Source of the DNA: Elusimicrobiota bacterium
GTDB taxonomy: Bacteria; Elusimicrobiota; Elusimicrobia; FEN-1173
Direction of reading: 5' to 3'
Length of the DNA stretch: 29,717 nucleotides
Assembly (NCBI GenBank): GCA_003158755.1
Contig: PMLF01000345.1
Location: 2,041-31,757 of the forward strand
Part shown: positions 4,464 to 22,379 of the stretch, one piece after another
How the letters are laid out: each line of letters begins with the position of its first letter
Position numbering within the stretch: position 1 is the first letter of the stretch
The notes under the pieces: generated by a model
The model's input: only the letters and a program-made list of their open reading frames with translations
What the model was told of the DNA's origin: nothing
Databases searched by the model: none
Position numbers and translations under genes: made by a program

Positions 4464-4499
4464 CCCTCTCCCTACCCCTCCCCCGTGAACGGGGGAGGG
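4464..4499 (+). repeat. REP-like palindrome of the CCCTCTCCC-N-CCCTCCCCCG...CGGGGGAGGG type
   Basis: CCCTCTCCCTAC-CCCTCCCCCG-TGAA-CGGGGGAGGG, a 10-bp stem at 4476-4499 just after the prfB stop. Single copy in this window. Confidence 0.55.
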
Positions 4500-4581
4500 A
4501 AACAAGAGGCAGGCGGGAGAACCCCCTGGGGGAACTTCTTGGGATTAGGGTCGTTCCCTATAAATGGAAATGGAAAAGGGT

Positions 4582-4610
4582 TTGACAATGAATTTTTGGG
4601 AAGTTATGCT
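4582..4610 (+). promoter_or_regulatory. Sigma70-type promoter of clpC
   Basis: TTGACA (4582-4587), 17 nt, TATGCT (4605-4610), with an A-rich upstream tract. Confidence 0.8.
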
Positions 4611-4652
4611 TCTGGGGTAGGACCGGACCATCATCGACGGAAGGGGGATGTG

Positions 4653-7258: not shown

Positions 7259-10200
7259 ATGCGAAGGCGCCTCTGGTTACTCATCTTGGTTTTATCGTCG
7301 GCGGCCCTAGGGGTATCCTGGGTCCTTTGGGGCGTTCCACGCGCGGAAAAGTTCCTTTACCCCAAAGTCAAAAAAATCCTGACTTCCCGCTTGCATCGGC
7401 CGGTACGCTTGGACGGAGTCCGGCTGAACCCGCTCCTCCTTTCGATCACGCTTGAAAACCTCCGCGTCCCCGCCGGAACCGGGCCGGACGCGCCGGAACT
7501 CTTCGCCTGCCGCCGATGGACCCTTTTCCTGACTCCCATCCACCGTTCACGCCAGTTTCCATGGTTTTCGCTTTCCATCGGCAAATCCACTTTTGACGTC
7601 CCCGTCCTCCACCTCGACGCCCTGCCGCCGTCCGCCGGGGGGAAACTTTTCCCGGGCGGCTTTCCCATTTTTCCGGCGCACCGGTTGGAATGGTCGAACG
7701 GCTCGATCCATTTTCCCGCCTACGAAAAATTCCCCTCCTTTACCTTGTCCAAATGCGAGGGCACCGCGGTCGTCACCAACGCCGATGCTTCCGTGGACGT
7801 GAACGGCGTCACGCCGTGGGGTCCGCTCCTCTCGGCCGGACGGTTGGAAGTGGCCTCCATTTTCAACCGGTCCGAAGGACTCCAATGGAAGGTCCTTGTT
7901 TCCTTGCCGGAAGGACGCCTGGAGGAATGGCTTCCGCTCCTGCCCGCCGCCGTCCCCGGACGAGGGGAAGGGACGGTCGGCTTGACGTTGACGATGCAGG
8001 GCGGGTCCCAAAAATCGGGCGTCGACCGCTGGGGTTTGGACGCGGACTTCAAGAAGGCCTCCTGGACCTTTGACCGCCGGCCCTGGCCCTTGTCCGGACG
8101 GTTGAGGTTCGCCTCCGACGAGGTCGCGACGGACGGATTCGCGTTGGGCCCGCTGAAGATCAGCGGGAAGGCGACGAACCCCTGGAAATCTCCGAGGATG
8201 GACGCCTCGCTCGTCGTCGACGACCTCCCTCTGGACGACCTTCGGATGCGCCTGCCTTGGAAACCTCTTTCCGCCTTGCCATGGAGAGGGAAGGCGTCCC
8301 TGACGGCCTCGATCAAAGGATCCCTTGAACGGCCCGACCTGAGGGTTTCCTTTAAGGCCGAAAACGCCGGGGCGGGACCGCTGGTCCTGCCGGGATTGAA
8401 GGCGACGCTGACCACCAAAACGGACCGGTTCATCTTGGACGCCTTTCTGGCGGGAGGCCGGATCCATGCCGAAGCCAAACGGACGGCGCAAAACCCGTGG
8501 CCTTCGTCCGATTGGGAGGGGCACGCGGAGTCCTTATCCTTGGACGCCCTCGCGGCCGCCGGGAAATGGGGAAAGGTCGGAGGATCCCTTAACGGGAACT
8601 TCGCCTTGCGCCGGGAACCGGTCTCCGGCGAGCCCTTGGCCGGCGGCGTCCTGCGCCTGGAGCGCCCCGCTTGGGGAGATTACCGCCTCGACGAAACCGT
8701 CATCGCCTATTTCTCCTGGCGGAACGACGCCATCCGGTTCCACAACAAGAGCGATACCCTGGACGTCTTGGTGCGGAGGACGCTCGCCGGTTGGAACCTC
8801 GAACGACTTTCCTACACCCGCGCGGACGGAATGGCCTTGTCCGGAGAAGGAAGCATCGATGGTTCGGAGAAGAACGTCTCGTTCAAGGCTTCCTTGCGCC
8901 AAGCGTCGCTGAGAGACATCCCCGTCCTTTTGGAAAGGTTTCCCGACGTGGAAGGGCGGTGGCAAGCCGACGTTTCCGCCGAGGGGACCCTGGCCGCTCC
9001 CCGAATCTCCTTATTCTTCGAGGGAAGCGGAGCCCGCCTCCGGAGAGACGCCGAGGCCCATTCCTTCCGCGGCCGGGCGCGATGGGAGAGCGCCTCCTTT
9101 TCCCTCGACGAACTTCGGCTGGACGACGCATGGAAGGCCGCGGCGGTCCGATCCTCGGACGGCCAATGGTTGGTGAACGTCACCGCCGACGGCGCCGACG
9201 CGGCTCTTTTCCGCGAAATCTCCCGGTCCAGCGCGCCGGTTTCCGGACGGTTTAGCGCGAGCCTCTCGGCGTCCGGCGGCGGGGACGTCCCCTGGGAAGG
9301 GTCTCTCCGTTCGAAGGCGACCGATCTTCGTTGGGAGAGCCGCTCCGTTTCCTCCGCGGTCTTGCGGGCCGATTGGGGAAAGGACCGCATCCGCGTCGGC
9401 GAGTTCTCCGTCGCCTTCGCGTCCCGATCCTTCTCCTACGACGGAGAGTTCCTCCGCCGGTCGCCGTCCGAGTGGACCTTGTCCGTCGAGGGGCCGGGGA
9501 TCGAGCGCGCCGAGGGCCTCGCTCGCCTCGGCGACGGAACCCTTTCCGTCCGAGGCGTGAAACTCGGCGATGGGATGGTCTTCGACGGATATTTGGATTT
9601 GCCCCGCAAGTTCATCCGGGCCGGACTGAGGGGAGAAAAGGTGCAGGCGTCCGCCCTCGCCCGACGGACGGGAACCGATTGGCCCCGACGTCTGGGCGGG
9701 TCCTTGAGCGGCGAGGCGAAGATGGAAGGGCCTTTCTCCTCCCCCGCGTTTTCCTTGGCGTTCGACTGGTCGGACGCCCGGTGGAGGGAGGTTCCCCTTA
9801 TGCTTTCTTTCCGAGGAGGATGGGCGGGGGGGCCTTTACGCGTCGATCAGGCGCTGTTCACGACGCCCGACGGGGGACGCCTCGAATGCCGCGGCGCCGT
9901 CTCGGGCAACGAGGAGGACCCTCTTACCTTGTCCATCGAAGCCTCGGGTCTCCCGGCGACCGCGGCGGGCTTTCTTTCCGGAGGGACCTGGGGCGGAGAA
10001 GCGGTCCTGGAAGGGAGCCGTCGGAACCCGCAAGGCCGGTTTTCGATGAAAGCCGCGGGCGTGCGCTTCGACGACCGGCCCCCCGTCACCGCGCGTCTGG
10101 CGGGGTCCCTGAGGGGAGGAACGCTGATCGTCGAGGGGGCGGAAGCGTTCAACGGCGAAAGCCGCTGGACCCTGCGGCCGAAGAGCTTCCTCCGTTTCGT

Positions 10201-12463
10201 CGAAGGCGGCGTCGATTTCGACGTGACCAACGACGTCCGCAACGTCCGGGCGGGACCCGTCAGCTTTTTCGGAGGCCTGCGTTTGACCGGGTCGTGGCGC
10301 GCGTCGCCCGCCCGTCTGACGACGATCGTGGCCGCGGAGGACCTGTGGATCAACCAGCAAGTCTTCGACAAGGAACTGGCGCGGGTCACCTGGTCGAAGG
10401 ACCGCCTCGCTTTCGATGCCCCCGCCGGCGCGTCGCAACGGCTGACCGGCGCCGTCGACCTGTCGGACTGGCCCGGTCTCCGGTTTGAGGACCTGGCGTT
10501 GTGGCTCAACGGCGACCGCCTTCTCCGCTTGAACGGAAGCGCGGGCCCGTCCGGACCTTGGAATTTTTCCTTCGAGGGACATGGATTGGAATCGGGGATC
10601 CTCCTTTCCCTGGCCGACCTCGACGTGTCGGGAGACGGGGCCGTCGACGTTTTCCTCACCGGACGGGGGTCGGGCGCCGACCCGACCGTCGAGGCCGAAG
10701 TGGTGGGCGGCGCGGGCACGTTGGGCGGCGTGCCCTACGACGGGTTGGATGCGGCGGTATCCTGGTCCCGGAACCGAGTCCAGCTTCGACGGTTTAAACT
10801 ATTCCATCGAAAGGGTTACGTTCTTTCCGGCACCGGAGAAATGGCCGCCTCCGAAGAACGCGGCGCCCCCCCGCAGATGAGTTTCCTTTTGCGGCTGACC
10901 AACGGGAACCTCGCACTTCTCAAGGAACTATGGCCCGATTGCGTCTCGGCGCGGGGAGCTTTTGAAGGAGAGCTTTCGCTGACGCCCGGGAAAGAGGGCC
11001 CGGTGGTGGACGGATCGTTCTCCCTCGACAACGCCTCCGTTCGCGCCGACAAATACGTCGGGCGGGTCAAGGACCTGACCGTTCGGCTGAGGATGAAGGA
11101 TAACCGCGTGTTCATGGAGGACGTCTCCGGCCGGGAGGATAAGGGCCGCTTCGTTCTGGAGGGGAGCGTGGGGTTGGAGGGAGGCCGCGTGAAGGACTAC
11201 GACCTCCGATTTCGCACCCTGGGCCGGCGAGGAATTCCATTTTCCATGCCACAGCTTTCCGTGCCGCCGGGGCCGCTCCTCAACCAGTTCTCCTTTTTAA
11301 GGAAGACGTTTCAAGGGGAATCGTCGGGGGAACCGCGGGCGGAAATCACGATCAAAGGACCTCACGGATCCCATGTCATCGCGGGGGAAATCATCCTTGA
11401 AGATTCTCGCTTCACGTATCCTCCCCTTCCCGGCGCCTTCGGGTTGGGGAACCGAGGCACGTGGTGGTGGGAGTTTTGGCGGGAAGCCACCTGGGACGTG
11501 ACCATAAAAACCGGGAAGAACTCCTGGTATCGAAACGAGTTCGTGAACGCCCGCGTGGACGGTTGGTTGACCCTCTTGGGTCCCAAAGAAGCGTTGAAGG
11601 TGGACGGCAAGATCCGGACCGACCAGGGGATCATTTCCTACCTCGGACAACCCTTTCAAATCAAACAGGCGGTTTTCGAGGTTGTTACCGACACCAGACC
11701 CGGCGTTTCCGAGGGGACGTCCCTGGCCTACATCTCCGGCGAGGCCGAACGCAGCGCGACGACCATCGACGCGAGCGGAGTCGCCTCGATGGACGTCGTC
11801 ACCATGTCCGTGCCCCGGTCCCGTTTGGGGGAAATCCGTCCGAGATTCGCTTCCCGAAACAACCCCGGGCTCTCCTCCGAACGGGTCTTCCAAAAGCTGT
11901 TGGGATTCTCTTCCCAGGATTCCCACCAGGGGCCGACCACGGAAGAACAGGACCAATTGCTCCGGGCGGGATTGGTGCAGCTCGTGGGCTCCAGCGCCGG
12001 CCCCTTCGCCAACCGGCTTGCCCAGCTTTTCGGAATTGATATGATTGCTGCCGTATACGAGCCAACGGCTCCTCTTGGGGGGAACAGCAACACTCCCCAG
12101 GACGTCGGAGACCTCCGGCGCCTGGCGGTGGAACCGGCCGGAGCGCGGTCCACCATGAACACCTGGTCGGATCTTCTGAGGGGAACCGGCGCCTCCGCGG
12201 GGGTAAAACTCTCGGACCGGATTTTTGGCGTCTATAAGTTCAAGGTGGATCAGTCGCCCACCAATCAAGTTTTCCTCCACGATGAGGTTCAGGTCGTTGG
12301 ACGGGTCGTCGGGAATATTTACTTGAAATTCTCAACGGAACTGGATACCCGGTCGCTCTTGGGCCAGCCTCCCAACCGGCAGATCCTGCTGGAAAGGCAG
12401 TGGCGGTTCGGGCTGCCGTCTCGTAAACCGGAAAACCCAAAGAAAGAAACCCCGGCGCCTTGA
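7259..12463 (+). CDS. tamB: Large TamB/AsmA-like protein (1734 aa)
   Basis: N-terminal TM anchor and AsmA-like start; long Gly-rich repeating beta-strand body; C-terminal TamB-like segment (GWLTLLG..LKVDGKIRTDQGIISYLGQPFQI); directly upstream of bamA. Confidence 0.75.
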   Translation: MRRRLWLLILVLSSAALGVSWVLWGVPRAEKFLYPKVKKILTSRLHRPVRLDGVRLNPLLLSITLENLRVPAGTGPDAPELFACRRWTLFLTPIHRSRQFPWFSLSIGKSTFDVPVLHLDALPPSAGGKLFPGGFPIFPAHRLEWSNGSIHFPAYEKFPSFTLSKCEGTAVVTNADASVDVNGVTPWGPLLSAGRLEVASIFNRSEGLQWKVLVSLPEGRLEEWLPLLPAAVPGRGEGTVGLTLTMQGGSQKSGVDRWGLDADFKKASWTFDRRPWPLSGRLRFASDEVATDGFALGPLKISGKATNPWKSPRMDASLVVDDLPLDDLRMRLPWKPLSALPWRGKASLTASIKGSLERPDLRVSFKAENAGAGPLVLPGLKATLTTKTDRFILDAFLAGGRIHAEAKRTAQNPWPSSDWEGHAESLSLDALAAAGKWGKVGGSLNGNFALRREPVSGEPLAGGVLRLERPAWGDYRLDETVIAYFSWRNDAIRFHNKSDTLDVLVRRTLAGWNLERLSYTRADGMALSGEGSIDGSEKNVSFKASLRQASLRDIPVLLERFPDVEGRWQADVSAEGTLAAPRISLFFEGSGARLRRDAEAHSFRGRARWESASFSLDELRLDDAWKAAAVRSSDGQWLVNVTADGADAALFREISRSSAPVSGRFSASLSASGGGDVPWEGSLRSKATDLRWESRSVSSAVLRADWGKDRIRVGEFSVAFASRSFSYDGEFLRRSPSEWTLSVEGPGIERAEGLARLGDGTLSVRGVKLGDGMVFDGYLDLPRKFIRAGLRGEKVQASALARRTGTDWPRRLGGSLSGEAKMEGPFSSPAFSLAFDWSDARWREVPLMLSFRGGWAGGPLRVDQALFTTPDGGRLECRGAVSGNEEDPLTLSIEASGLPATAAGFLSGGTWGGEAVLEGSRRNPQGRFSMKAAGVRFDDRPPVTARLAGSLRGGTLIVEGAEAFNGESRWTLRPKSFLRFVEGGVDFDVTNDVRNVRAGPVSFFGGLRLTGSWRASPARLTTIVAAEDLWINQQVFDKELARVTWSKDRLAFDAPAGASQRLTGAVDLSDWPGLRFEDLALWLNGDRLLRLNGSAGPSGPWNFSFEGHGLESGILLSLADLDVSGDGAVDVFLTGRGSGADPTVEAEVVGGAGTLGGVPYDGLDAAVSWSRNRVQLRRFKLFHRKGYVLSGTGEMAASEERGAPPQMSFLLRLTNGNLALLKELWPDCVSARGAFEGELSLTPGKEGPVVDGSFSLDNASVRADKYVGRVKDLTVRLRMKDNRVFMEDVSGREDKGRFVLEGSVGLEGGRVKDYDLRFRTLGRRGIPFSMPQLSVPPGPLLNQFSFLRKTFQGESSGEPRAEITIKGPHGSHVIAGEIILEDSRFTYPPLPGAFGLGNRGTWWWEFWREATWDVTIKTGKNSWYRNEFVNARVDGWLTLLGPKEALKVDGKIRTDQGIISYLGQPFQIKQAVFEVVTDTRPGVSEGTSLAYISGEAERSATTIDASGVASMDVVTMSVPRSRLGEIRPRFASRNNPGLSSERVFQKLLGFSSQDSHQGPTTEEQDQLLRAGLVQLVGSSAGPFANRLAQLFGIDMIAAVYEPTAPLGGNSNTPQDVGDLRRLAVEPAGARSTMNTWSDLLRGTGASAGVKLSDRIFGVYKFKVDQSPTNQVFLHDEVQVVGRVVGNIYLKFSTELDTRSLLGQPPNRQILLERQWRFGLPSRKPENPKKETPAP

Positions 12464-12554
12464 TCCGACGACACTTTATTAAGGCGCCCAGCGTCCAACA
12501 AAGCCGACACGTTTGCTTGCAGTTCCATCACGCGTTAAAAGGCCCGGATATTTC

Positions 12555-14990
12555 ATGAGACGTTCTTGCGTTCCCTATCGGTTCCTCCTATTTTTTGCGG
12601 CAAGCGTTTGGCTATTCGCCGGATCCCTCCACGCCAAAACCAAGGAGCCACCGCCGACCGACGCCTTGTTCATCGGGGACGTTACGGTCCAGGGAGACCG
12701 GTTCATCAAGAAAAAGACTGCTTTGGGAAAAGTGAAAGCCCGCAAAAACGACGTCATCATTGATCCCACCTTTCGCGGCGACGTGGACCGGCTGCTGGAA
12801 TCCGGCCTCTTCGACGACGTCCAAGTTTCCTTGGAAGATATGCCGGAAGCCCTGGACGCGCAGGGGCGCCCGAAGAAACGCGTTATTTTCATTCTCCAAG
12901 AACGCCCCGTCATACGCCGCGTCGACTACAAAGGGAACAAGAAATTATCCAAGGGCAAGTTCGACGACGACGTCAGTTCCAAGGCCGGCGACCCCTACGA
13001 TAAGTTCAAGGCCGCCCAGGACATCCAAAAAATCCTCTCCAAATACCGCGACGAGGGATACTCCGACGCCTCCGTCGAAACCTATACGTCTCTCGCCCCG
13101 GAAACCAATAAATTGATCCTGACCTTCTTCATCACGGAAGGACAACGCATTTTGATTCAGAAAGTGGATTTCACGGGCAATAAAATTTACGCCACGAAAA
13201 AATTGCGCCGAATCTTCAAGAAAATCCGCCGCAACAAACCCTTCAAGGAAGACCTCCTGAAGGAAGACATGGAAGCGATGGAAAAGTATTACAAGAACCA
13301 CGGCTACCTGAAGGCTTCCGTGGGAGACCCCAAACGGGACTTTTCCGACGACCGCACCAAGGTCGCCCTGACCTTCGCCGTGGAAGAAGGGCGGCGCTAC
13401 CGGGTGGGAGATTTCACCTTTTCGGGCGCGTCCATTTATTCGGACAAGGAACTGCGCAAAGCGGTCGTCTTCCAGAAGGGTCAGCTCTATACACAGGACA
13501 AGATGGACGAGAGCCGCCAGAACCTCCAGGACCTGTACGCCGATAAGGGATACCTCCGCGCGGAGATCACCCCGACGGAAAAAGTCCTCGAACTGCCGAA
13601 CAACCAAGCGAGCGTGGACTACCATTTCACCATCGTGGAAAGCTCGGTCGTCTACGTCGACCGCATCTACATCGACGGCAACACCTACACCAAGGACAAG
13701 GTCATCCGCCGCGAGGTGCTCCTTAAAGAGGGGGACGTCTTCTCCTCCGGGAAGCTGCGGCGCTCGGTGGAAAAAATCTACAACCTCGGCTTCCTGGACG
13801 ACGTCCAGCCGGACGTCCAGCAGCCCCGCTCCCCCGTCAAGGCGGACGTGGTCTTCAGCGTCACGGAAGGCAAACCCGGCGTGCTGTCGGCCGGCGCCGG
13901 CTATTCCAGCGTCGACAAGCTGGTCGGCAACCTTTCCGTGCAGCACAACAACCTGTTCGGCCTCGGCCAAAAAGCCACCGCCTCATGGGAATTCGGCAAA
14001 CGCCGGCAGAGCTTCGACGTGGGTTGGGTGGACCCGTGGTTTATGGACAAACCCATGAGTTTCGGCGTCGACGTTTTCAACGTCGACCGCAAGCTCATCG
14101 CCCGAGCTCCCAACTACGACCCCATCACGCTGGTGGAGAACACCGGCTACTTCGTCGAAAACCAAACCGCCTATTCCTATACCCGACGGGGTTTTACCTT
14201 AAGCCTTTCACCGCGATTGACGGACCGCCTTTCCCTTTACCACGCCTACACTTTTGAGCGGCTGATCACCCACGCCATCGATCCCTTCTTCGCCAACCAC
14301 CCCGATCCGCTTTACCAAATCGTCGGTCGGGACGACATCAAATCCTCCATCACGAACGGCGTTGCTTACGATACGCGGGACTATTACCTGGACGCTTCCA
14401 AGGGTCAACGGAGCTCCGCCAACGTTGAAGTGGCCGGCGGACCCTTCCGTCTGGGGGAACACGTAAAAAATATGACCTTCTACAAACCGGATTTTGCCAG
14501 CGCCTTTTATTTCCCGACCTTCTGGAAGTTGGTGTTCTCGGTTTCGGGACGGATGAGCTTCATTGAGGAATTTGACGGCTATACCCTGCCGTCCCAATCC
14601 GCCGAACGTTTCCTGCTGGGTGGCGTGGACACCGTCCGGGGTTACCGCCTGGGCAACGTCGGAACGCAATACGCCCGTTCCATGTTGATCTTCAACGCCG
14701 AATATAAATTTCCCATCGTCCAGGAAAAAAGGAAAACCATCCTTCAAGGAGCGTTCTTCGCCGACGCCGGCGGCGCCTGGGACCGGGGGACCAGCAGCGA
14801 TCCCCTCCGTCACATGAACTGGCAGATCGGGAACGAACCGCAACAAATGAGGGCCTCCTGGGGTTTCGGAATCCGATTCAAGACTCCCGTCTTCCCCATT
14901 CGTTTGGACTACGCGTTCCCGTTGAGCAAAGCCCGGCCCGGGGGAGAGTCCTTTGAGCGCTTCAGCTTCAACATCGGGAACATCTTCTGA
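12555..14990 (+). CDS. bamA: Outer membrane protein assembly factor BamA
   Basis: Signal peptide from ATG 12555; five POTRA repeats; barrel start GVLSAGAGYS; VRGY loop-6 motif; ends FSFNIGNIF. Confidence 0.95.
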   Translation: MRRSCVPYRFLLFFAASVWLFAGSLHAKTKEPPPTDALFIGDVTVQGDRFIKKKTALGKVKARKNDVIIDPTFRGDVDRLLESGLFDDVQVSLEDMPEALDAQGRPKKRVIFILQERPVIRRVDYKGNKKLSKGKFDDDVSSKAGDPYDKFKAAQDIQKILSKYRDEGYSDASVETYTSLAPETNKLILTFFITEGQRILIQKVDFTGNKIYATKKLRRIFKKIRRNKPFKEDLLKEDMEAMEKYYKNHGYLKASVGDPKRDFSDDRTKVALTFAVEEGRRYRVGDFTFSGASIYSDKELRKAVVFQKGQLYTQDKMDESRQNLQDLYADKGYLRAEITPTEKVLELPNNQASVDYHFTIVESSVVYVDRIYIDGNTYTKDKVIRREVLLKEGDVFSSGKLRRSVEKIYNLGFLDDVQPDVQQPRSPVKADVVFSVTEGKPGVLSAGAGYSSVDKLVGNLSVQHNNLFGLGQKATASWEFGKRRQSFDVGWVDPWFMDKPMSFGVDVFNVDRKLIARAPNYDPITLVENTGYFVENQTAYSYTRRGFTLSLSPRLTDRLSLYHAYTFERLITHAIDPFFANHPDPLYQIVGRDDIKSSITNGVAYDTRDYYLDASKGQRSSANVEVAGGPFRLGEHVKNMTFYKPDFASAFYFPTFWKLVFSVSGRMSFIEEFDGYTLPSQSAERFLLGGVDTVRGYRLGNVGTQYARSMLIFNAEYKFPIVQEKRKTILQGAFFADAGGAWDRGTSSDPLRHMNWQIGNEPQQMRASWGFGIRFKTPVFPIRLDYAFPLSKARPGGESFERFSFNIGNIF

Positions 14991-15053: not shown

Positions 15054-15677
15054 ATGGATACGGTGGAGCTACTTCTAAAGGACACCTTCTTTTGGGCGGC
15101 GGCGGGAGTTTTCCTGCTCAGCTTATCCGTCTTCCTCTGGAGCCTGACGAGATTGCGAACGAAGTCCTCCTCCACGGGAGGAATGCCGTCTCTTTCATCC
15201 CGCGATTTTCCGTCACCGATGAATCCTTCTTCCGTCCCCCGCGACAAAAAGAGCCTTTGGGATTTCCCGCCTCCCGAGCTTCCTCCCGTTTTGCCGCCGG
15301 ACATGGAAGCAACGATGAAGCTCAAAGGGGCCGCCGGAAAACCCCCGGCGCCCACTCCGCCCGACTCTCCCCTTCTTCCTCAACGAGGAGATCCGACGTT
15401 GGTGCTTAGCGTCATGGAAGACAAATTCGCTGAACTGGCGAAACGCATCGCGGCTATTGAGCACCCCAAGAAGGATCAAGCTCCTTCCTATTTGGAACCC
15501 CTACTCAAGCGCGTGCAGGACATGGAATCGGAGTTGAAAAACCTGAAGTTCGCGTTCACACAACTGTCCTCGGCTCAAAACGCCATCAACTTAAACGACC
15601 TCACCGCCAAGATCCAGGGAATGCAGCAGATGATGGAACACCTGACCGGCGGGACGGACGTGTCCAAACCCTCATGA
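15054..15677 (+). CDS. Hypothetical membrane-anchored protein (TM, Pro/Ser-rich linker, coiled coil)
   Basis: TM FFWAAAGVFLLSLSVFLWSL followed by RLRTK; Pro-rich middle; heptad-like C-terminus; ATGA overlap with the next gene. Confidence 0.7.
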   Translation: MDTVELLLKDTFFWAAAGVFLLSLSVFLWSLTRLRTKSSSTGGMPSLSSRDFPSPMNPSSVPRDKKSLWDFPPPELPPVLPPDMEATMKLKGAAGKPPAPTPPDSPLLPQRGDPTLVLSVMEDKFAELAKRIAAIEHPKKDQAPSYLEPLLKRVQDMESELKNLKFAFTQLSSAQNAINLNDLTAKIQGMQQMMEHLTGGTDVSKPS

Positions 15678-16189
15678 CCATGGCCCTCGACAAACGATCC
15701 GCCTTAACGATATGCCTTGGAAGCTTCTTCCTCATGCTGGGATCGGGTATCCTTCTATGGTCCCGATGGGACAAGCTGTCCCACGGGGCTCCGGCGGTGA
15801 AGAAAGTTTCTTTGCCTGAAACCTTCGATCCGGCCTTCGGCGTCGGTACGGGGTGGCCCGCCGCTGCGTCGCCCGCCGCCCCCGCGACGCCGGGCAGGCC
15901 TCCGGTCCGATCCCCGGCCCCCAGCCCTGATCCCGGCGCAACGCGCAACATACGATTCACCTTCCGCGATTCACGACCGGCCAAAGTGGAACTCGTCGGG
16001 AATTTCAATAATTGGACGCCGGAAGCCATGACAAAAGGGGACAACTTCGTCTGGGACGTTTCCGTTCCCCTGAAACCGGGCGAATACACCTACAATTTTC
16101 TGGTGGACGGCAAACCGTCGAGGGATCCCAACAACCCCCGCACGGCCCCCGAGGGGAGGTCCCTCCTGGTGGTAAAAAATTTACCATGA
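15674..16189 (+). CDS. Membrane-anchored CBM48/AMPK-beta-like glycogen-binding domain protein
   Basis: N-terminal TM; Pro/Ala linker; C-terminal AKVELVGNFNNW...WDVSVPLKPGEYTYNFLVDGK...DPNNP, typical of AMPK1_CBM/CBM48. Confidence 0.85.
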   Translation: MTMALDKRSALTICLGSFFLMLGSGILLWSRWDKLSHGAPAVKKVSLPETFDPAFGVGTGWPAAASPAAPATPGRPPVRSPAPSPDPGATRNIRFTFRDSRPAKVELVGNFNNWTPEAMTKGDNFVWDVSVPLKPGEYTYNFLVDGKPSRDPNNPRTAPEGRSLLVVKNLP

Positions 16190-17454
16190 GGCGTTTTCTA
16201 CTCCTTTTCCTCGCCGTTTCCCTCCCGTTTTCATCCTTCCCCGTCGCCGCGAAGTCTCCGACCAAATCAAAACCCTCCGCCCTTCAGCGGGATTTGGCCT
16301 ACTACCGCCACCTGGCCAAAGCGAGGAAGATGAGTCCGAACGACCGCCTTTACATTTTGTACCGCATGAAGGGGAAATACGCCGAAACGAAGTCGGACCT
16401 GGCGCCGCTCCTCGGAGAAATTGATCGATGGGAAACCGCGAAGCGCACGGGGAAAGACCCGGGAGCGCCGAAAAAATCGCACCCGTCCAAGGTCGCCGCA
16501 AAACATCCGAGTGCGTCTCCGGTCCAAGCTTCGACGACGACACCCGCCAAAGCGGCGGAACCCGCGGTCCCCTCCGCGTCCATGACCGAGGTTTCCGCCT
16601 CCACCGTGACGGTCCAGCCGGTAAACATGGACGCTCTCCTTCAGCCCGGCGATTTTTTGACCATCAAGGTTTTCCCGACCAAGGACCTGAACCGGGAAAC
16701 CGTCGTTCAACCCGACGGCACGATCGTGTTCCCGCTCCTCGGGACCCTCCCGGTCCAAGGGATCACCCAAACCTCCCTGGAAAAAACCCTCGTTAAAAAA
16801 CTCAGGCGCTACGTCACGGCGCCGCAAGTCCGCGTCACGGTTCGTCGTTCTTCGGACAACATCGTTCTGGTCACGGGACGGGTGGTGAATCCCGGGGCCG
16901 TGGCTTATCGAACGGGAATGAAAACGCTTTCCGCGGTCTCCTCCGCCGGAGGTTTCCAAGAAGACGCCGATCGGTCCGGCGTCTTGGTCCGCCGATACCG
17001 GGGGAAGGACCAAACCACCTTCACCGTCGATCTCCGGGCGGTCCAAATGTATTGCGACTCGACGAAGGATTCCCTTCTTCAGCCGGGCGACGTCGTGGAC
17101 GTTCCCCGGGAAGGGAACAACGTCTCGATCCATGGAATGGTGAACCATCCCGGGAACTATTCCTTCCAGAAAGGGATCACGCTTCTGGAACTGCTCTCCG
17201 ACGCCGGAGGGTTCGCCGTCGGCGCCAAGACGGAAACGGTCTTCCTTTACCGCCAAGGAGGCTCCGGGCGAAACTCGGAAACGGTCAACGTCGACCGACT
17301 GTTAAACAAACATCCCGAAAGCGACCCCGTCCTGAAAGGCGGCGACATCGTCATGGTTCCTCAGAAAACGTTTTACGCCGGGACGGCGGCCATGACCCCT
17401 TGGATGTACCTCGCCACCCTGGTGATCGCCGTCGTCGTGGCGACGAAAAACTGA
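16186..17454 (+). CDS. Wza/OPX-like polysaccharide export protein with an N-terminal extension
   Basis: LQPGDFLTIKVF, PDGTIVFPLLG (Poly_export domain); SLBB repeats (AVSSAGGF, LLSDAGGF, LQPGDVVDVP, LKGGDIVMVP); hydrophobic C-terminal helix; ATGA overlap sets the start at 16186. Confidence 0.88.
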   Translation: MRRFLLLFLAVSLPFSSFPVAAKSPTKSKPSALQRDLAYYRHLAKARKMSPNDRLYILYRMKGKYAETKSDLAPLLGEIDRWETAKRTGKDPGAPKKSHPSKVAAKHPSASPVQASTTTPAKAAEPAVPSASMTEVSASTVTVQPVNMDALLQPGDFLTIKVFPTKDLNRETVVQPDGTIVFPLLGTLPVQGITQTSLEKTLVKKLRRYVTAPQVRVTVRRSSDNIVLVTGRVVNPGAVAYRTGMKTLSAVSSAGGFQEDADRSGVLVRRYRGKDQTTFTVDLRAVQMYCDSTKDSLLQPGDVVDVPREGNNVSIHGMVNHPGNYSFQKGITLLELLSDAGGFAVGAKTETVFLYRQGGSGRNSETVNVDRLLNKHPESDPVLKGGDIVMVPQKTFYAGTAAMTPWMYLATLVIAVVVATKN

Positions 17455-17455
17455 C

Positions 17456-18862
17456 TTGGACCCCGAGTCCCTTCCTGTTTCCCGCCGACGGTTCCTCCAC
17501 CGGCGGGCGTTTTTTGTCGGAGCGGGATTGTTGGCCCCGGCGGCCGCCTGGATCGTTACTCTTCTCCAAACACCCGTCTACCGAGCCTCGGCGGTCCTGA
17601 GGATCGATCCCAACGACCCGCTGAAAAGCGTCGGGGCCCTTCTGGACACCGAAGTGAAAAGGGCCGGTAGCCCGGACGTTGCCCGTCGGGCGGCGGCGCT
17701 CCTCGGCTGGGTGGCGCCCGCGATGCCGGAAGAAACCGTCCGAAACTTAGCGAACGCCATCCAATCGCAATCCGTCGTCGAGCGCGTGGGAGAATCCAAC
17801 CGCCTCCGGATTTCGGTATTGGACGCCAAGGCGGAAAGGGCCGCGGCCCTCGCCAACGCCCTGATGTACGCTTACATTCAACAAGCCATCGACAAGAACA
17901 ACTCGGTCGGGATCTTTGCCCAAAGCTCTTTCGTGGACCACCCCGCCCTGGCGCCGAAGCGGCCGCTGCGCCCCGATTTGTTCTTTAACCTTTCTCTGGG
18001 GGCGGGAGGTCTGTTCCTGGGGCTGGTATCGGCCTTCCTGACCGGAGAACCGGACGCTCCGCCGGTCACCGCCGAAGACAAGGAACAATTCTTCGGACTT
18101 CCCGTCCTATCCGTCATTCCCCGACTGTCCATCGCAAGCGTTCGATCCTTTTCCCTTTTCCGGCGAGGGCCGGGGATCGAAGAGAGTCGCCGACGAACGA
18201 TCCTCTTCCATCCGTCACCGTCCTCTTTCGCCGATTCCTACGAACCCCTTCGCGCGAACCTCTCCATCACCGCGCGACCCGGAGGCCGTCCGGCGCCGGC
18301 GGTGGCGTTCACCTCCGCCGCTTCCGGAGAGGGGAAAACGCTCACGGCAGTCAACGTCGCCCTGGCCGCGGCCCAATCGGGACTCCGCGTCCTTTTCATC
18401 GACGCCGATTTTCGCCGCCCCTTCGCCCACAAGCTCCTCGGGATGCCCCGGGAACCGGGACTTGTGGACGCCGTTCTGGGGAATAAAAATTGGTTGGTTT
18501 TCGTGCGGGGGATGCCCGACTTCCTTTTCGGGGAGTTGAAGGTGGCTCCCTGGCTCCAGTCCTCCGGCATCGAGAACTTTCACCTGCTCGCCAGCGGCCG
18601 GCCTCCCTTAAAACCCGAAGACGTCCTTCGGGAGCCTTCCTTCGATCGACTCCTGAAGGAGGCTCGCTCCCGGTTTGATTTGGTCGTCATCGACGGCGCG
18701 CCCGTGGGCCCTTTCGCCGACGCCTTGATCGTCGGCCAAAAAGCCGACGGGGTTGTCCTGGTGCGCCGATCCGGCGTCACGGACCGGGATGAGTTGAAGC
18801 GCGCCGCGCAACAACTCCTCGACGCGAAGTCCAGGGTTTTGGGGGTAGTGATAAACGGCTAG
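17456..18862 (+). CDS. Compact Wzc-like polysaccharide co-polymerase/BY-kinase fusion lacking the C-terminal Tyr cluster
   Basis: TTG start 1 nt after the wza stop; two TMs with TPVYRASA and PKRPLRP Wzz-like motifs; Walker A SAASGEGKT, A' FIDADFRRP, B VVIDGAP; ends VLGVVING. Confidence 0.85.
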   Translation: MDPESLPVSRRRFLHRRAFFVGAGLLAPAAAWIVTLLQTPVYRASAVLRIDPNDPLKSVGALLDTEVKRAGSPDVARRAAALLGWVAPAMPEETVRNLANAIQSQSVVERVGESNRLRISVLDAKAERAAALANALMYAYIQQAIDKNNSVGIFAQSSFVDHPALAPKRPLRPDLFFNLSLGAGGLFLGLVSAFLTGEPDAPPVTAEDKEQFFGLPVLSVIPRLSIASVRSFSLFRRGPGIEESRRRTILFHPSPSSFADSYEPLRANLSITARPGGRPAPAVAFTSAASGEGKTLTAVNVALAAAQSGLRVLFIDADFRRPFAHKLLGMPREPGLVDAVLGNKNWLVFVRGMPDFLFGELKVAPWLQSSGIENFHLLASGRPPLKPEDVLREPSFDRLLKEARSRFDLVVIDGAPVGPFADALIVGQKADGVVLVRRSGVTDRDELKRAAQQLLDAKSRVLGVVING

Positions 18863-18873
18863 GCGATATATTT

Positions 18874-21120
18874 TTACGAAGCGGACCCCGCAACCGAATC
18901 CGACAGATAGTTCACGGGAACGGGATGAGGCTTCGCGGCCGCATCAGGGGACAATAGTTCATAAACCAAAACGCGGTTGACGGGACGCCCGCCGTACATT
19001 TCATCCCGGTGAAACAGCTCCTCGACATAACGGCTCCAGTACTGCCGCAGAACGGCCGCCCCCGCCTCATCGAATTTCAACATCCCATACCCTTTCAATC
19101 GTTCGGACTCCCCGAGGTTCAGGACCATATTGGTAATCCCTTCCCGACGGAGCCGGTCGGCCAGGGCATCCCCGTCCCGCGATTCGCGGGCCCAGGCGAT
19201 CAGAGGCGACTCGTTGAATACGGAGGAGGCAATGTGATCGCGTCGAAGGTAAAACCCCCGGGATTCACCCAGGATAAGGACTCGCGCCCCGGGCGAGAGC
19301 TCTTTGTTGATTTCATCATAGGCCGAGAAAGACGGCGAAGGATAGGTGGTGTGGAATCGGCCGAGGTATTCTTCCTTGGTCTCCAAACCTATGACGGGCC
19401 GCCAGCCTTCCATTTGATCCGTCAACAGAAAGGATTGCGAGACGTCTCCCAAGCACATGACCAGCACCGACAATCGGAAGAAGCTCTTCAAGACCGACGG
19501 CCATGGGACTTTTAATATCCCATAGGCCGCCGCAATCGCGAAAAAGGGAAGGGAAGGCATCAGGTACCTGGCAAGCGTCGTCGTGCACGCCCAAGACAAG
19601 GCAAAAAGAACCGACGCGCCCGCGGCCACCCGCAAGGGGACGGGGTACTTCTTGAAAAACACCAAAAGCGGAAGGAACACCAAATAGACCGGAGTGAACA
19701 CGGCGGCGTTGGCCTTTAATCCCATGGTAACGTCCCACGGCAGGAGAAGGAAACCCGCCAAACCCTTCACGTCGTATTGGGAGGCTTCCGTGAAAAGACC
19801 GTGAAGCCGGACGGGATCGTCAGCCCGCGTTCCTGGAAATAGTCCCGAAAGAAACGGGAACACGGGATTCCCCTTGAAAAGGACGTTTTTGATCAGCCAG
19901 GGAGAAAGGACGACGGTCCCCGCCGCGACCAAGGTCCCTCCAGCCAAGAAAACCTGCCGCCACGTCAGGGTTTTTCGCGCGCCCGCGTACACAAGCATGG
20001 CCATCAAAGACACGGGGACGAATACGGCGGTGTACTTGCTTCCCATCGCAAACCCGCAAAAAACACCGGAAAGGACGATCCACGACCAGGGAAATCCCCT
20101 TTCGGGGCCGACGGCGTCCTTCCACCAAAAGGCGAAGGAATAGAAAGCCAGCATGGAAAATAAAGTGATCCCTAGGTCCGTGCCGCACGCCGATGAAATA
20201 TATAAGACGTGGAAAAGAGAATAAAATATCATCGCGGCCCAACGTCCAACGCGGGGGGTCAACGCTCGCCGGCAAAAAGAAAAAATCGAGGCGCAACAGA
20301 GAAGACCCAGCCCGTAACATTGCAGTTTGGACACCATCTCGTCTTTAACGAGGAGCCCCGCCGTGTAGAAATAGGTGACCGTCATGGGCATGTGGGCATA
20401 GACGTTCCAAGGGGCTTCCACCAGGCGATGGGCCATGACGTTCAACCAGGGGACGCCCAGGTGGTAGGCGAGACTGTCGAAAAAGACGAGCGGCGTGAAG
20501 GCCCCCAACAAACCGTGGAGCGCCTGCAAAAGAAAAAGGGCGAAAGCGAACTTATCGAGGAGCGGCCATCGGAGGAATGGATTCGAAGGCTTCGAATACG
20601 GCGGAGCCGACCGCCAATCCATCACGATCCTTCCGGCTTGCCAAAGGCCCAGACCGATGATCAGGGGACGAACGACCCACGCGTAAAGACCGCCGACGGC
20701 GGCGAGCAGAAACATCAGGTAGGACAGGAGGCCGCAACCGAGGGCGGTTTCCAAAACGAATCGTTCTCTCCGGTTTCCGTCGGGAAACGTCGCGGACATC
20801 AAGGCGAACCGCCCCAGAGACCCGGCCGACAGGAAAAGGACTCCCGCCCATAGGAAGGTCGTCAGACGGTCCCACAAGAGAACCGCGGTCAATGAAGGCA
20901 ACGCGCCCAGGACACCGCCCAGAACCCGTGAAATGGCCTCCACGGGAAATGGGAAAACTCCATAATAGTTGAAGAGAACGAAACCGCTCCAGAGTATCGC
21001 GGCCGTCGCCGCCAGAGGCCAAGGCAATCGATAGGTGGGGAGGTCTTCCGGCTGTTTTTCGCTTGGCTGATTCGTCCCGCCGGCGCGGGAACGCGGACCG
21101 CGCTTATTACGGGACGCCAT
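18874..21120 (-). CDS. Polytopic membrane protein, GT-C (ArnT/PMT, GT39/GT83-like) glycosyltransferase, about 748 aa
   Basis: Many TM helices; loop motif FDSLAYHLGVP; GFAMGSKYTA; WLIKN..KGNPVFPF; soluble C-terminal domain. ATG at 21120 overlaps the upstream TAA (TAATG). Confidence 0.65.
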   Translation of the reverse strand: MASRNKRGPRSRAGGTNQPSEKQPEDLPTYRLPWPLAATAAILWSGFVLFNYYGVFPFPVEAISRVLGGVLGALPSLTAVLLWDRLTTFLWAGVLFLSAGSLGRFALMSATFPDGNRRERFVLETALGCGLLSYLMFLLAAVGGLYAWVVRPLIIGLGLWQAGRIVMDWRSAPPYSKPSNPFLRWPLLDKFAFALFLLQALHGLLGAFTPLVFFDSLAYHLGVPWLNVMAHRLVEAPWNVYAHMPMTVTYFYTAGLLVKDEMVSKLQCYGLGLLCCASIFSFCRRALTPRVGRWAAMIFYSLFHVLYISSACGTDLGITLFSMLAFYSFAFWWKDAVGPERGFPWSWIVLSGVFCGFAMGSKYTAVFVPVSLMAMLVYAGARKTLTWRQVFLAGGTLVAAGTVVLSPWLIKNVLFKGNPVFPFLSGLFPGTRADDPVRLHGLFTEASQYDVKGLAGFLLLPWDVTMGLKANAAVFTPVYLVFLPLLVFFKKYPVPLRVAAGASVLFALSWACTTTLARYLMPSLPFFAIAAAYGILKVPWPSVLKSFFRLSVLVMCLGDVSQSFLLTDQMEGWRPVIGLETKEEYLGRFHTTYPSPSFSAYDEINKELSPGARVLILGESRGFYLRRDHIASSVFNESPLIAWARESRDGDALADRLRREGITNMVLNLGESERLKGYGMLKFDEAGAAVLRQYWSRYVEELFHRDEMYGGRPVNRVLVYELLSPDAAAKPHPVPVNYLSDSVAGSAS

Positions 21121-22379
21121 TAGGCGGGATCGAAAACAGCTCCGGCGAAAGACACGATGCCGCCGGCAGGGTCGGGTTTCTGATCGTAACCGAGGAGCAT
21201 GCCGCTCAACGGGCCACCGGCGACAGCGCGGGTCCAGCGAAGGGCGGTGTAGAGGGCCGAGAGGCCGCAGACTTTCCGCCACGCGTTCTCGCCGACGCCC
21301 GCCAGGAAAAAACCATCCGCATCTCCCGCCAAGGCCTTGTCCAGGCTCTCCCGGTCGAGCGTCTCCACCTTCTTTTTCAACGCGTCGTCTACGTCCATCT
21401 CATCTCCGAAACGACGTCCCACGTGGGCCAGATCGACGCCGGCCAAGATCATGACGCGGCGTCCTTTTCGGCGCTCCTCCGCCAAAAGGTCCCCGATATC
21501 CGAAAGAGCTTTCTCGACGGTGGGCACGACGGAGGGCGGACGGTCCTCGCAGTAAGGCTCGAAGGAAGAACAAAGGATCGGCACCCAGGGGGGGGTCTTG
21601 TCCCGCCACAAATATTTGAGCCACAGGGCCTGGAACTCCAAGGAATGTTCCTTGGCGTGGACCCACTCCTCCTCGCGCGTATCGTACCAAAGGCGGGCGG
21701 CAATCCGATCGTGGAGATCCGCGTCCACCATCATGGGCCCGAAGGGGGTTTCGTAGGCTTTGCGGGTGGTCACCCAAGGCGAGCGGGGAGAATGGTGGGC
21801 GACGCCCAAGGCCACCACCACGTCCGGCGGGCGGCGCCGGGCCAGTTCGCCGTAGGCCGCCGCATAGATTTGGCCGCCCCGGGCGAAATCGATGTGAGGA
21901 GCCGCCAAGCCCAGAGGCGCTTCGCGGTCGCCGGGAAGAGGGGGACCTCCCGCTGCGCCGAAGAACCGTCCAAGGAGAGCGCCCATGCCCAAAGCGTCCG
22001 GCGGAAGTCCGCGGGATTCGGCGTGAAAAGGGCGGAGAGGCGATTCGCCGAAAACCTTCAATTGACGGCGTCTCTCCTCCCGGGAGGAGGGAGTATCCAA
22101 CAATCCGTGAAGGTCCAGGTCGTCGGCCAACGATTGGACGTCGGACTCCTTGGCGTCCATCCCTTCGGTCGAGAGGACCAAAGCCACTTCGGCTGCCGTT
22201 CGTTTTCCGTCGAAAATGGAGGCGACGAGGGCGGCGGCCATGGGGACCGCCGCCGCAGCCTTCTCGTCGAGACCCAGGGCGTCCGACATAACCACCAATT
22301 TTTCTCCGTCCCGCTCCACGGGCTGAAGCTCGAGGTCCCGACGAAGGGGGGGAATCGGGGTGCCGGTAAGGAGAGCCAT
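21120..22379 (-). CDS. MEMO1 family (AmmeMemoRadiSam protein B-like) with an extra N-terminal domain
   Basis: APHID, LGVAHH, YETPFG, EHSLEFQ, GVDLAHVG and KVCG match MEMO1 metal-site motifs; about 100 extra N-terminal residues; start placed at ATG 22379. Confidence 0.85.
   Translation of the reverse strand: MALLTGTPIPPLRRDLELQPVERDGEKLVVMSDALGLDEKAAAAVPMAAALVASIFDGKRTAAEVALVLSTEGMDAKESDVQSLADDLDLHGLLDTPSSREERRRQLKVFGESPLRPFHAESRGLPPDALGMGALLGRFFGAAGGPPLPGDREAPLGLAAPHIDFARGGQIYAAAYGELARRRPPDVVVALGVAHHSPRSPWVTTRKAYETPFGPMMVDADLHDRIAARLWYDTREEEWVHAKEHSLEFQALWLKYLWRDKTPPWVPILCSSFEPYCEDRPPSVVPTVEKALSDIGDLLAEERRKGRRVMILAGVDLAHVGRRFGDEMDVDDALKKKVETLDRESLDKALAGDADGFFLAGVGENAWRKVCGLSALYTALRWTRAVAGGPLSGMLLGYDQKPDPAGGIVSFAGAVFDPA

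Follow-up and report, generated by a model that had tools for sequence, protein, structure and literature searches.

A Wzc-type polysaccharide co-polymerase with intact Walker motifs, no tyrosine tail and no periplasmic helical arm in an Elusimicrobiota bacterium

In the Wzx/Wzy model of polysaccharide export, the polysaccharide co-polymerase (PCP) Wzc alternates between an octamer in the dephosphorylated state and monomers in the phosphorylated state, with its helical arm docked on the outer-membrane polysaccharide export (OPX) protein Wza. Monoderm systems do without a helical arm, and PCP-2 systems that work independently of phosphorylation, such as EcpK, HfsB and GumC, have been recognised only recently. 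Here we describe a Wzc-like gene at positions 17456-18862 of a 29,717-nucleotide stretch of DNA from an Elusimicrobiota bacterium (contig PMLF01000345.1), the whole of which is referred to as the window; positions are on the plus strand unless stated otherwise. Alignments and phylogeny identify it as an orthologue, in derived form, of the canonical Wzc-type PCP-2a tyrosine autokinases. What sets it apart is a combination of features: the P-loop is intact, the C-terminal tyrosine tail is missing, and so is the periplasmic helical arm.

Escherichia coli Wzc makes no polymer unless its tail is autophosphorylated, and deletion of the motif-3 helices abolishes production while octamers and kinase activity stay intact (PMC8285477). 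The helical arm contacts domain D1 of Wza, and mutations in this interface abolish production as well (PMC12881504). PMC4007543 defines bacterial tyrosine kinases (BY-kinases) by the Walker A, A′ and B motifs together with a C-terminal tyrosine cluster, and the sequence ExxRxxR on helix α2 is their oligomerisation motif (O-motif; PMC9800525). The BY pseudokinases EcpK and HfsB and the fused PCP-2 pseudokinases function independently of phosphorylation, apparently as scaffolds (PMC12004946), GumC carries no tyrosine cluster (PMC9800525), and in YwqD of Bacillus subtilis the exchange of the tyrosine cluster for Phe enhances ATPase activity (PMC9800525, Table 2).

The open reading frame (ORF) in the window encodes 468 residues, from a TTG start that sits 2 bases 3′ of the TGA with which the upstream OPX gene ends to a TAG stop at 18860-18862, the point at which homologues run on into a linker and the tyrosine cluster. 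Gene callers place the start 25 codons further in, which yields a protein of 443 residues; since this start would cut the first transmembrane helix (TM1) and the homologue alignment supports the 468-residue form, the longer N terminus is preferred. The first-pass annotation, drawn from the letters of the DNA, had noted that the frame ends at VLGVVING with no later tyrosines, and our analysis confirms this. Nothing follows the last β-strand (E461-467 in the AlphaFold2 model) at the C terminus ...RVLGVVING, and the match of solved BY-kinases to the window protein ends 19-24 residues short of their own C termini, the tyrosine cluster lying within those residues. The whole protein contains only four tyrosines (positions 42, 138, 140 and 262), none of them C-terminal. 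Because the protein has no C-terminal tyrosine cluster, autophosphorylation of such a cluster is not possible.

The intactness of the Walker motifs GEGKT, IDADFRRP and IDGAP, claimed at the same stage, is likewise borne out. Walker A (SAASGEGKT; G291-T295, 18326-18340), Walker A′ (LFIDADFRRP; I315-P322, 18398-18421, with D316, D318 and R320) and Walker B (LVVIDGAP; VVIDGAP at V410-P416, 18683-18703) are complete and fit the patterns GxxxxGK[ST] for A, four hydrophobic residues followed by DxDxR for A′ and four followed by DxxP for B, and G293, K294, D318, D413 and P416 are invariant in an alignment of 59 sequences, the invariant columns of which are all kept in the window protein (8/8). Residues 262-467 score 119.8 bits against the NCBIfam profile TIGR01007 (polysaccharide biosynthesis tyrosine autokinase), above its cut-off of 108.05; in Pfam only the generic P-loop families CbiA and AAA_31 are matched. 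Sequence matches in the PDB comprise CapAB, Etk, Wzc, BceF and VpsO, with E values from 1e-13 to 1e-21. An AlphaFold2 model built from the 59-sequence alignment (mean predicted local distance difference test score, pLDDT, 89; predicted template modelling score, pTM, 0.70) displays a kinase fold that is complete to the last strand at 461-467. In Foldseek the model comes closest to E. coli Wzc (7nhr, E 8e-27), and for its kinase domain the CapAB chimeras give target-normalised TM-scores of 0.87-0.91 and root mean square deviations of 2.3-3.5 Å.

TM1 comprises residues about 18-37 (17507-17566), as indicated by hydropathy, an AlphaFold2 helix at 17-37 and the homologue alignment, and is preceded by the cytoplasmic sequence SRRRFLHRR; TM2 spans residues about 175-196 (17978-18043), again by hydropathy and an AlphaFold2 helix at 175-196. 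The two are separated by about 137 residues according to both methods (38-174; 17567-17977), in agreement with the earlier estimate of about 135. This short periplasmic domain is predicted as a compact α/β base with one 26-residue helix and pLDDT values mostly of 95-98, and the helical arm is missing from it. Alignments locate the junction at K147-F154 (KNNSVGIF; 17894-17917), where the orthologues carry about 160 additional coiled-coil residues. Pfam finds neither Wzz (PF02706) nor GNVR (PF13807) in the window protein at E < 0.01, whereas the orthologues carry PF02706 and PF13807. The proline/glycine signature of PCP proteins at TM2 is kept, P167, P170, P173, G185 and G189 occupying invariant or near-invariant columns. 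Residues 9-15 ahead of TM1 (S-R-R-R-F-L-H; 17480-17500) resemble a twin-arginine motif (S/T-R-R-x-F-L); homologues read Y-x-R-I/M-L-x-R-R at this site, and the resemblance probably arose by chance from the N terminus usual in PCP proteins.

Further changes affect the juxtamembrane segment and the O-motif. After TM2 (18044-18085), GEPDAPPVTAEDKE stands in place of the family motif E-x-LDTSI-x-T-x-E-x-VE, and four family-invariant positions are altered (G197, P202, A206 and K209); from residue 208 onwards the sequence aligns with the C-terminal CapA activator fragment of the CapAB chimera. The O-motif (D260-x2-E263-x2-R266, in place of E-x2-R-x2-R; 18233-18253) is degenerate in the HMMER alignment to CapB: where CapB reads EKFRGIR the window protein reads DSYEPLR, with D260 replacing the invariant glutamate and only the last arginine retained. 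Close tailed orthologues have ExxHxxR at this place. Set against the described classes, the protein thus shares with BY-kinases a score above the profile cut-off and all three Walker motifs, and lacks their tyrosine cluster and O-motif; it shares with PCP-2a proteins two TM helices with a fused kinase domain, the TM2 signature and the pairing with an OPX gene, and lacks the helical-arm periplasmic domain; and it has the BY-kinase-like fold without tyrosine tail that marks BY pseudokinases, while its Walker residues have not been lost.

The sequence is reproducible. Three other assemblies (L013, L014 and L015; two JGI samples and one from ENA) are 99.8-100% identical across the locus, which Logan contigs of several runs from peat and permafrost contain as well. 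The stop codon region (18855-18865), earlier singled out as the place to check, is spanned unchanged by a contig of run X3, which comes from a sample and study of its own and covers 18649-19000 with no differences. An assembly error is ruled out by the identity in these assemblies and in contigs of other samples. A variant about 91% identical, from run X5, is gapless across the short-domain junction (NNADGIL where the window has NNSVGIF); it is known from two 151-nucleotide contigs, neither of which reaches the stop codon. The short periplasmic domain also occurs in at least one somewhat diverged lineage. A scan of metagenome contigs for relatives at 70-95% identity returned one distant locus, at 28%, and a search of 40 relatives met no other species of the same genus.

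Its nearest homologues share 37-56% identity with the window protein and are 626-638 residues long, and every one of them has the additional 160 or so periplasmic residues of the coiled-coil arm and a tail of the type ...NDLRASEMQPQYGYYYSYDY.... The orthologues from four related genomes of the same family or order and from peat metagenomes (P0002-P0007, G004, G007, G009 and G015) are 59-71% identical to each other and 44-47% to the window protein. They resemble it in the four-gene module in which the gene lies, in the layout of TM helices and kinase and in identity (44-56%); their length of 626-650 residues, Wzz and GNVR domains and tyrosine tail (of the type ...YGYYYSYDY...) are all missing in the window protein. 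In a first search, a tail of at least 17 residues with at least two tyrosines was present in 118 of the 119 other sequences scored; among 148 representatives of a library clustered at 50%, 143 have at least two tyrosines within 40 residues past the last strand. A maximum-likelihood tree nests the window protein among tailed orthologues (support 99/97, 100/99 and 100/100) on a terminal branch of 1.02, compared with 0.14-0.43 for its neighbours. In view of this placement the tail-less short form is a lineage-specific derivative and not an ancestral state.

Whether homologues share the truncation, which the first-pass annotation had left to alignment, has a mixed answer. Every close orthologue has the tyrosine tail and the long arm, a result that the annotation had named as a refutation and that partly counts against it; a sister sequence, in contrast, does not have the tail. 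This sequence, P0124, emerged from the exhaustive search of representatives. It is a metagenomic protein of 575 residues (L044:2167-3894), 41% identical to the window protein, whose complete gene was recovered in two contigs within the same module and is followed by a GT4 glycosyltransferase gene. P0124 ends in ...GVVLCPPS without a tail and has also lost the LDTSI juxtamembrane motif. Like the window protein it evolves fast with its ORF intact; in contrast to it, P0124 retains most of the helical arm, and its Walker motifs are degenerate (SVRKD for Walker A, VEGDLRR for A′ and VVLNCPP for B), with a TIGR01007 score of 78.6 bits, below the cut-off. We regard P0124 as a candidate fused BY pseudokinase that would have arisen recently from canonical Wzc. 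Both sequences are grouped with support of 99/96 and a shared stem of 0.27, and, in a check for long-branch attraction, each falls on the same node when analysed without the other. Since the sister is tail-less too, a single loss in the common ancestor is the simplest history, and the tail was probably lost before the two diverged. Two independent losses are conceivable, given that each branch is long and of unusual composition, and the agreement of the separate analyses on one node is no proof of one event. The tail-less state shared with this deeply diverged sister argues strongly against a fresh nonsense mutation private to the window lineage.

A further tail-less metagenomic protein, P0099 (L042:1509-3689, 726 residues), was seen in two samples. 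It is a complete PCP-2a with intact Walker motifs that ends in ...VLNH; no frame at its locus, which is arranged Bac_transf-OPX-PCP-Wzx, encodes a tyrosine tail. As in the window, a complete gene with intact Walker motifs thus lacks the tail, but P0099 differs in its long periplasmic domain, which includes Wzz and GNVR, and, with an identity of only 32%, represents an unrelated, independent loss. With this further case, tail-less forms of PCP-2a recur at a few percent.

We favour the view, to which we give about an even chance of being right, that the window protein is a phosphorylation-independent PCP-2a, probably still nucleotide-binding, that occupies a place between canonical Wzc and the BY pseudokinases. 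In the history that this would imply, the C-terminal tyrosine cluster was lost in the common ancestor with P0124. The P0124 lineage would then have lost its Walker motifs to become a full BY pseudokinase, and the window lineage would have kept the P-loop and lost the helical arm of about 160 residues, most of the O-motif and the juxtamembrane motif. The cycle of tyrosine autophosphorylation and octamer disassembly would no longer be run, and the protein would serve as a membrane-anchored, MinD/ParA-like scaffold, nucleotide-binding or ATP-hydrolysing, for the polysaccharide machinery beside the OPX protein. Continued use is argued for by the open frame of 468 codons, the catalytic residues, the TM2 signature, the clean excision of the arm and the coupling to the OPX gene; what is shown are the architecture, the state of the motifs, the place in the tree, the faster rate and the reproducible sequence, whereas continued function, ATP hydrolysis and the scaffolded partner are inferred. 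It can neither run the canonical cycle nor bridge to the OPX protein in the manner of Wzc. The first-pass annotation had suggested an ATPase-only protein or a trans-acting kinase. The former, or a nucleotide switch, is supported as the most economical reading; the latter lacks direct support, and the O-motif is degenerate. A bolder proposal, an 'uncoupled' Wzc in which the OPX-adjacent co-polymerase of a diderm, without arm or tyrosine cycle, would use plain ATP binding and hydrolysis by its P-loop as an assembly switch, appears rather doubtful to us.

The gene is the last of a four-gene envelope module (15054-18862) that encodes a coiled-coil protein, a CBM48 protein, the OPX protein and the PCP, in an order kept in all related genomes and contigs examined (L024, L025, L026, L027, L041 and L044). 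The first two genes, for sp207 with a membrane anchor and a coiled coil and for a 171-residue protein with a glycan-binding CBM48/AMPK1_CBM domain (15054-16189), have the same order in G004, G007, G009, G015, L041 and L044. The Wza-like OPX gene (16186-17454), with a Poly_export and two SLBB domains, stops 2 nucleotides before the PCP start, and this adjacency is kept in the relatives. Synteny with the relatives ends at a convergent gene for a PMT_2/LIC_10190-like membrane protein (18874-21282, minus strand), 11 nucleotides from the PCP stop. Downstream of the module, G007 has genes for Wzy_C, a MurJ-like flippase and methyltransferases, L044 has one for GT4 and L041 one for an unrelated convergent membrane protein. 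The break in synteny is real, but cannot be tied to the loss of the tail, for which a rearrangement is one conceivable cause. Directly upstream of the module lie genes for a TamB-like protein of 1734 residues and for BamA (7259-14990); the related genomes checked gave no TamB or BamA match next to the module, and have BamA on other contigs.

Elsewhere in the genome, the short contig C190 (L017:392-2524, minus strand) encodes a second complete Wzc of canonical type. It has 710 residues, its periplasmic domain is a long coiled coil, its Walker motifs are intact and it ends in a short tyrosine tail, ...SYLYRYMAEIPA (SYLYRY...). Eight other matches to the Wzy_C family are present in the genome. 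No phosphatase gene was found in the window, which the first-pass annotation took to fit an ATPase-only protein or trans-acting kinase. This turned out to be uninformative: relatives with a tailed Wzc have two or three LMWPc genes, also on other contigs, and because they show the same arrangement, nothing about the tail can be read from the lack of a phosphatase gene at the locus. The genome itself has two LMWPc matches, of which one is of the CTGNICRS type and the other an ArsC next to an arsenite carrier. The CTGNICRS-type gene (L020:323-829, contig C27), with a DP loop, lies between a Sua5/YrdC-like gene and glyA, a neighbourhood shared by ywlE of B. subtilis, which encodes an arginine phosphatase. 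The C27 gene probably encodes a protein tyrosine phosphatase or a YwlE-like enzyme, and its product may not act on Wzc as a tyrosine phosphatase. The single match to the PHP domain is an open frame of 720 residues on contig C62.

The window protein has changed much faster than its relatives. In Tajima's relative-rate test it has 123 unique changes compared with 33 in P0002 (p 6e-13). Twelve tailed homologues have 59 invariant columns in common; the window protein departs from 13 of them, compared with 0-7 in leave-one-out controls; this share of 22% stands against 0-10% in tailed homologues, even far more divergent ones. The altered sites include the O-motif glutamate, the four juxtamembrane positions, the Asn of the PxNP loop and residues in the last helices. 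Deviation from the family consensus rises with decreasing conservation (22, 23, 40, 58 and 75% by conservation bin), and since divergence is graded in this way selection is still visible, although in the most conserved class the changes exceed those of every tailed homologue by a factor of 2-10. A long branch of the whole genome as the cause is ruled out for ClpB (4485-7151), which is 81-86% identical to its relatives compared with 78-83% among them, but is partly true for envelope proteins: BamA (12513-14990) is 57-60% identical to relatives that share 67-75% with one another, and the OPX protein (16186-17454) 39-45% compared with 49-61%. The divergence of BamA and OPX but not of ClpB indicates that part of the acceleration is an envelope-wide trait of the lineage, with the PCP as its most extreme case. 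More generally, the whole envelope of the window lineage seems to be evolving fast in comparison with ClpB.

This pattern also suits a different account, in which the gene is a decaying relic: a rearrangement would have removed the downstream synthesis genes, arm and tail would have been lost, the sequence would drift under little or no selection, and the C190 Wzc would do the work. We consider this unlikely, though it is the main rival of the favoured reading. The long terminal branch and the excess of unique changes point in this direction; the excess is about fourfold and spread evenly over N terminus, periplasmic base, linker and kinase domain, and the loss of 22% of the invariant residues also fits relaxed selection towards decay. 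A protein without tail and arm should fail at canonical Wzc function, as both are essential in E. coli Wzc. The Wzy_C, flippase and GT4 genes that follow the PCP in relatives do not adjoin it here, synteny breaking off 11 nucleotides past the stop. The second, tailed Wzc of C190 could carry the real Wzc function, and no RNA run (metatranscriptome) was among those listed as holding the gene. Two further points count against the favoured reading. The Wzy-like gene of G007, used as query, found no orthologue in this genome, a result of little weight in view of 85% completeness and the eight other Wzy_C-family matches, and the grouping with P0124 joins two long and compositionally odd branches. 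What decay does not readily explain is the state of the gene itself. Its 468-codon frame is open and tightly coupled to the OPX gene; in unconstrained simulations the share of frames still free of stops was 6%, 2.5% and 0.3% at 19, 26 and 45% amino-acid change, figures that exclude insertions and deletions and would be lower with them. All catalytic residues are kept, divergence is still graded by site conservation, and in the predicted structure the arm appears cleanly excised at the domain borders from a confidently folded base. Moreover, the short form occurs in the relative of about 91% identity, the tail-less state in the 41%-identical P0124 with its ORF intact, and the acceleration is in part envelope-wide, BamA and OPX being diverged and ClpB not.

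If the protein is in use, its intact Walker motifs might instead serve a trans-acting tyrosine kinase that phosphorylates other proteins, for instance the tyrosine tail of the C190 Wzc, a tailed paralogue available in the same genome, or sugar-nucleotide enzymes. D318, the second Asp of Walker A′ and the proposed point of recognition for the substrate tyrosine, is among the residues kept, and PMC4007543 reports BY-kinases with relaxed substrate specificity. Phosphorylation in trans, however, needs a ring formed through ExxRxxR, which is DxxExxR here; invariant positions are altered in helices that apparently match the complementary interface, a mapping drawn from helix order in the AlphaFold2 model; and the juxtamembrane activator segment is altered as well. 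That P0124 has lost its whole active site suggests that the role retained in this clade is not tyrosine catalysis, and the module encodes no candidate substrate. We judge this kinase to be quite improbable. Hardly credible in our view is an artefact or very recent lesion, that is, a sequencing or assembly error, or a fresh nonsense mutation with possible low-level read-through of the TAG. It draws on the tails of all close orthologues and on the stop itself, since TAG occurs only in the PCP gene among the 17 genes of the window (13 end in TGA and 3 in TAA). The 15 in-frame codons after it read AIYFYEADPATESDR, followed by a second TAG (18863-18910), and contain Y-F-Y; when all six frames of the window are cut into 15-mers free of stops, 0.3% of these have Y-x-Y and 1.6% have at least two tyrosines. 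This stretch may be what is left of the tyrosine tail, or the AT-rich spacer may have produced it by chance; the statistics are suggestive but weak evidence, on which the favoured reading does not depend, and we leave it as an unexplained and minor point. The linker is missing from it. That it runs from the AT-rich 11-nucleotide spacer into the convergent gene, whose last 12 codons it overlaps, weakens, together with the tail-less sister P0124, the idea of a vestigial tail or of read-through. At least three other assemblies carry the identical sequence, a contig from another sample covers the stop, the loss shared with P0124 is probably old, and the O-motif and interface residues have changed too, which takes time.

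The consequences differ with the state of the protein. If active, the protein would be a natural construct that separates the intrinsic ATPase of the BY-kinase domain from autokinase activity, and would offer a test of whether an OPX protein can work with an arm-less PCP. If it is decaying, the locus is a commonplace case of gene erosion in a peat bacterium that has not been cultivated. Should the 'uncoupled' Wzc be true, it would, with its Walker-dead sister, capture successive steps from kinase to pseudokinase, and OPX-dependent export would be possible without the Wzc-Wza bridge. One orthologous module already offers a three-step series: tailed Wzc, a tail-less form with Walker motifs, and a tail-less form with dead Walker motifs in P0124.

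The protein is not new in kind, because BY-kinase-like proteins without tyrosine tails have been described (PMC12004946, PMC9800525), and it lies within the known continuum from BY-kinases to BY pseudokinases and does not constitute a new kind of system. With E. coli Wzc (PDB 7NHR and 3LA6; Wza-Wzc complexes 9R6x) it shares the TM1-periplasmic-TM2-kinase topology, the Walker motifs and the OPX neighbour; E. coli Wzc, in contrast, has the tyrosine cluster and the motif-3 arm that contacts Wza, neither of which is present in the window protein with its O-motif DxxExxR. EcpK/EpsV of Myxococcus xanthus, HfsB/HfsA of Caulobacter crescentus, fused forms such as SMc01795 and GumC resemble it in a BY-kinase-like fold without tyrosine tail and in their association with PCP and OPX proteins of Wzx/Wzy-type pathways (PMC12004946, PMC9800525). 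EcpK and HfsB, however, lack the Walker motifs and act as separate proteins alongside PCP partners with a long periplasmic domain, and no close sequence kinship with this group is detectable, the window protein having arisen independently from canonical Wzc. The PCP-2b systems CapA/CapB of Staphylococcus aureus and CpsC/CpsD of Streptococcus pneumoniae are alike in a short, armless extracytoplasmic domain and a similar kinase domain. They differ in that they consist of two polypeptides with tyrosine clusters and no OPX protein, whereas the window protein is a single polypeptide encoded in a locus of diderm type near OPX, BamA and TamB.

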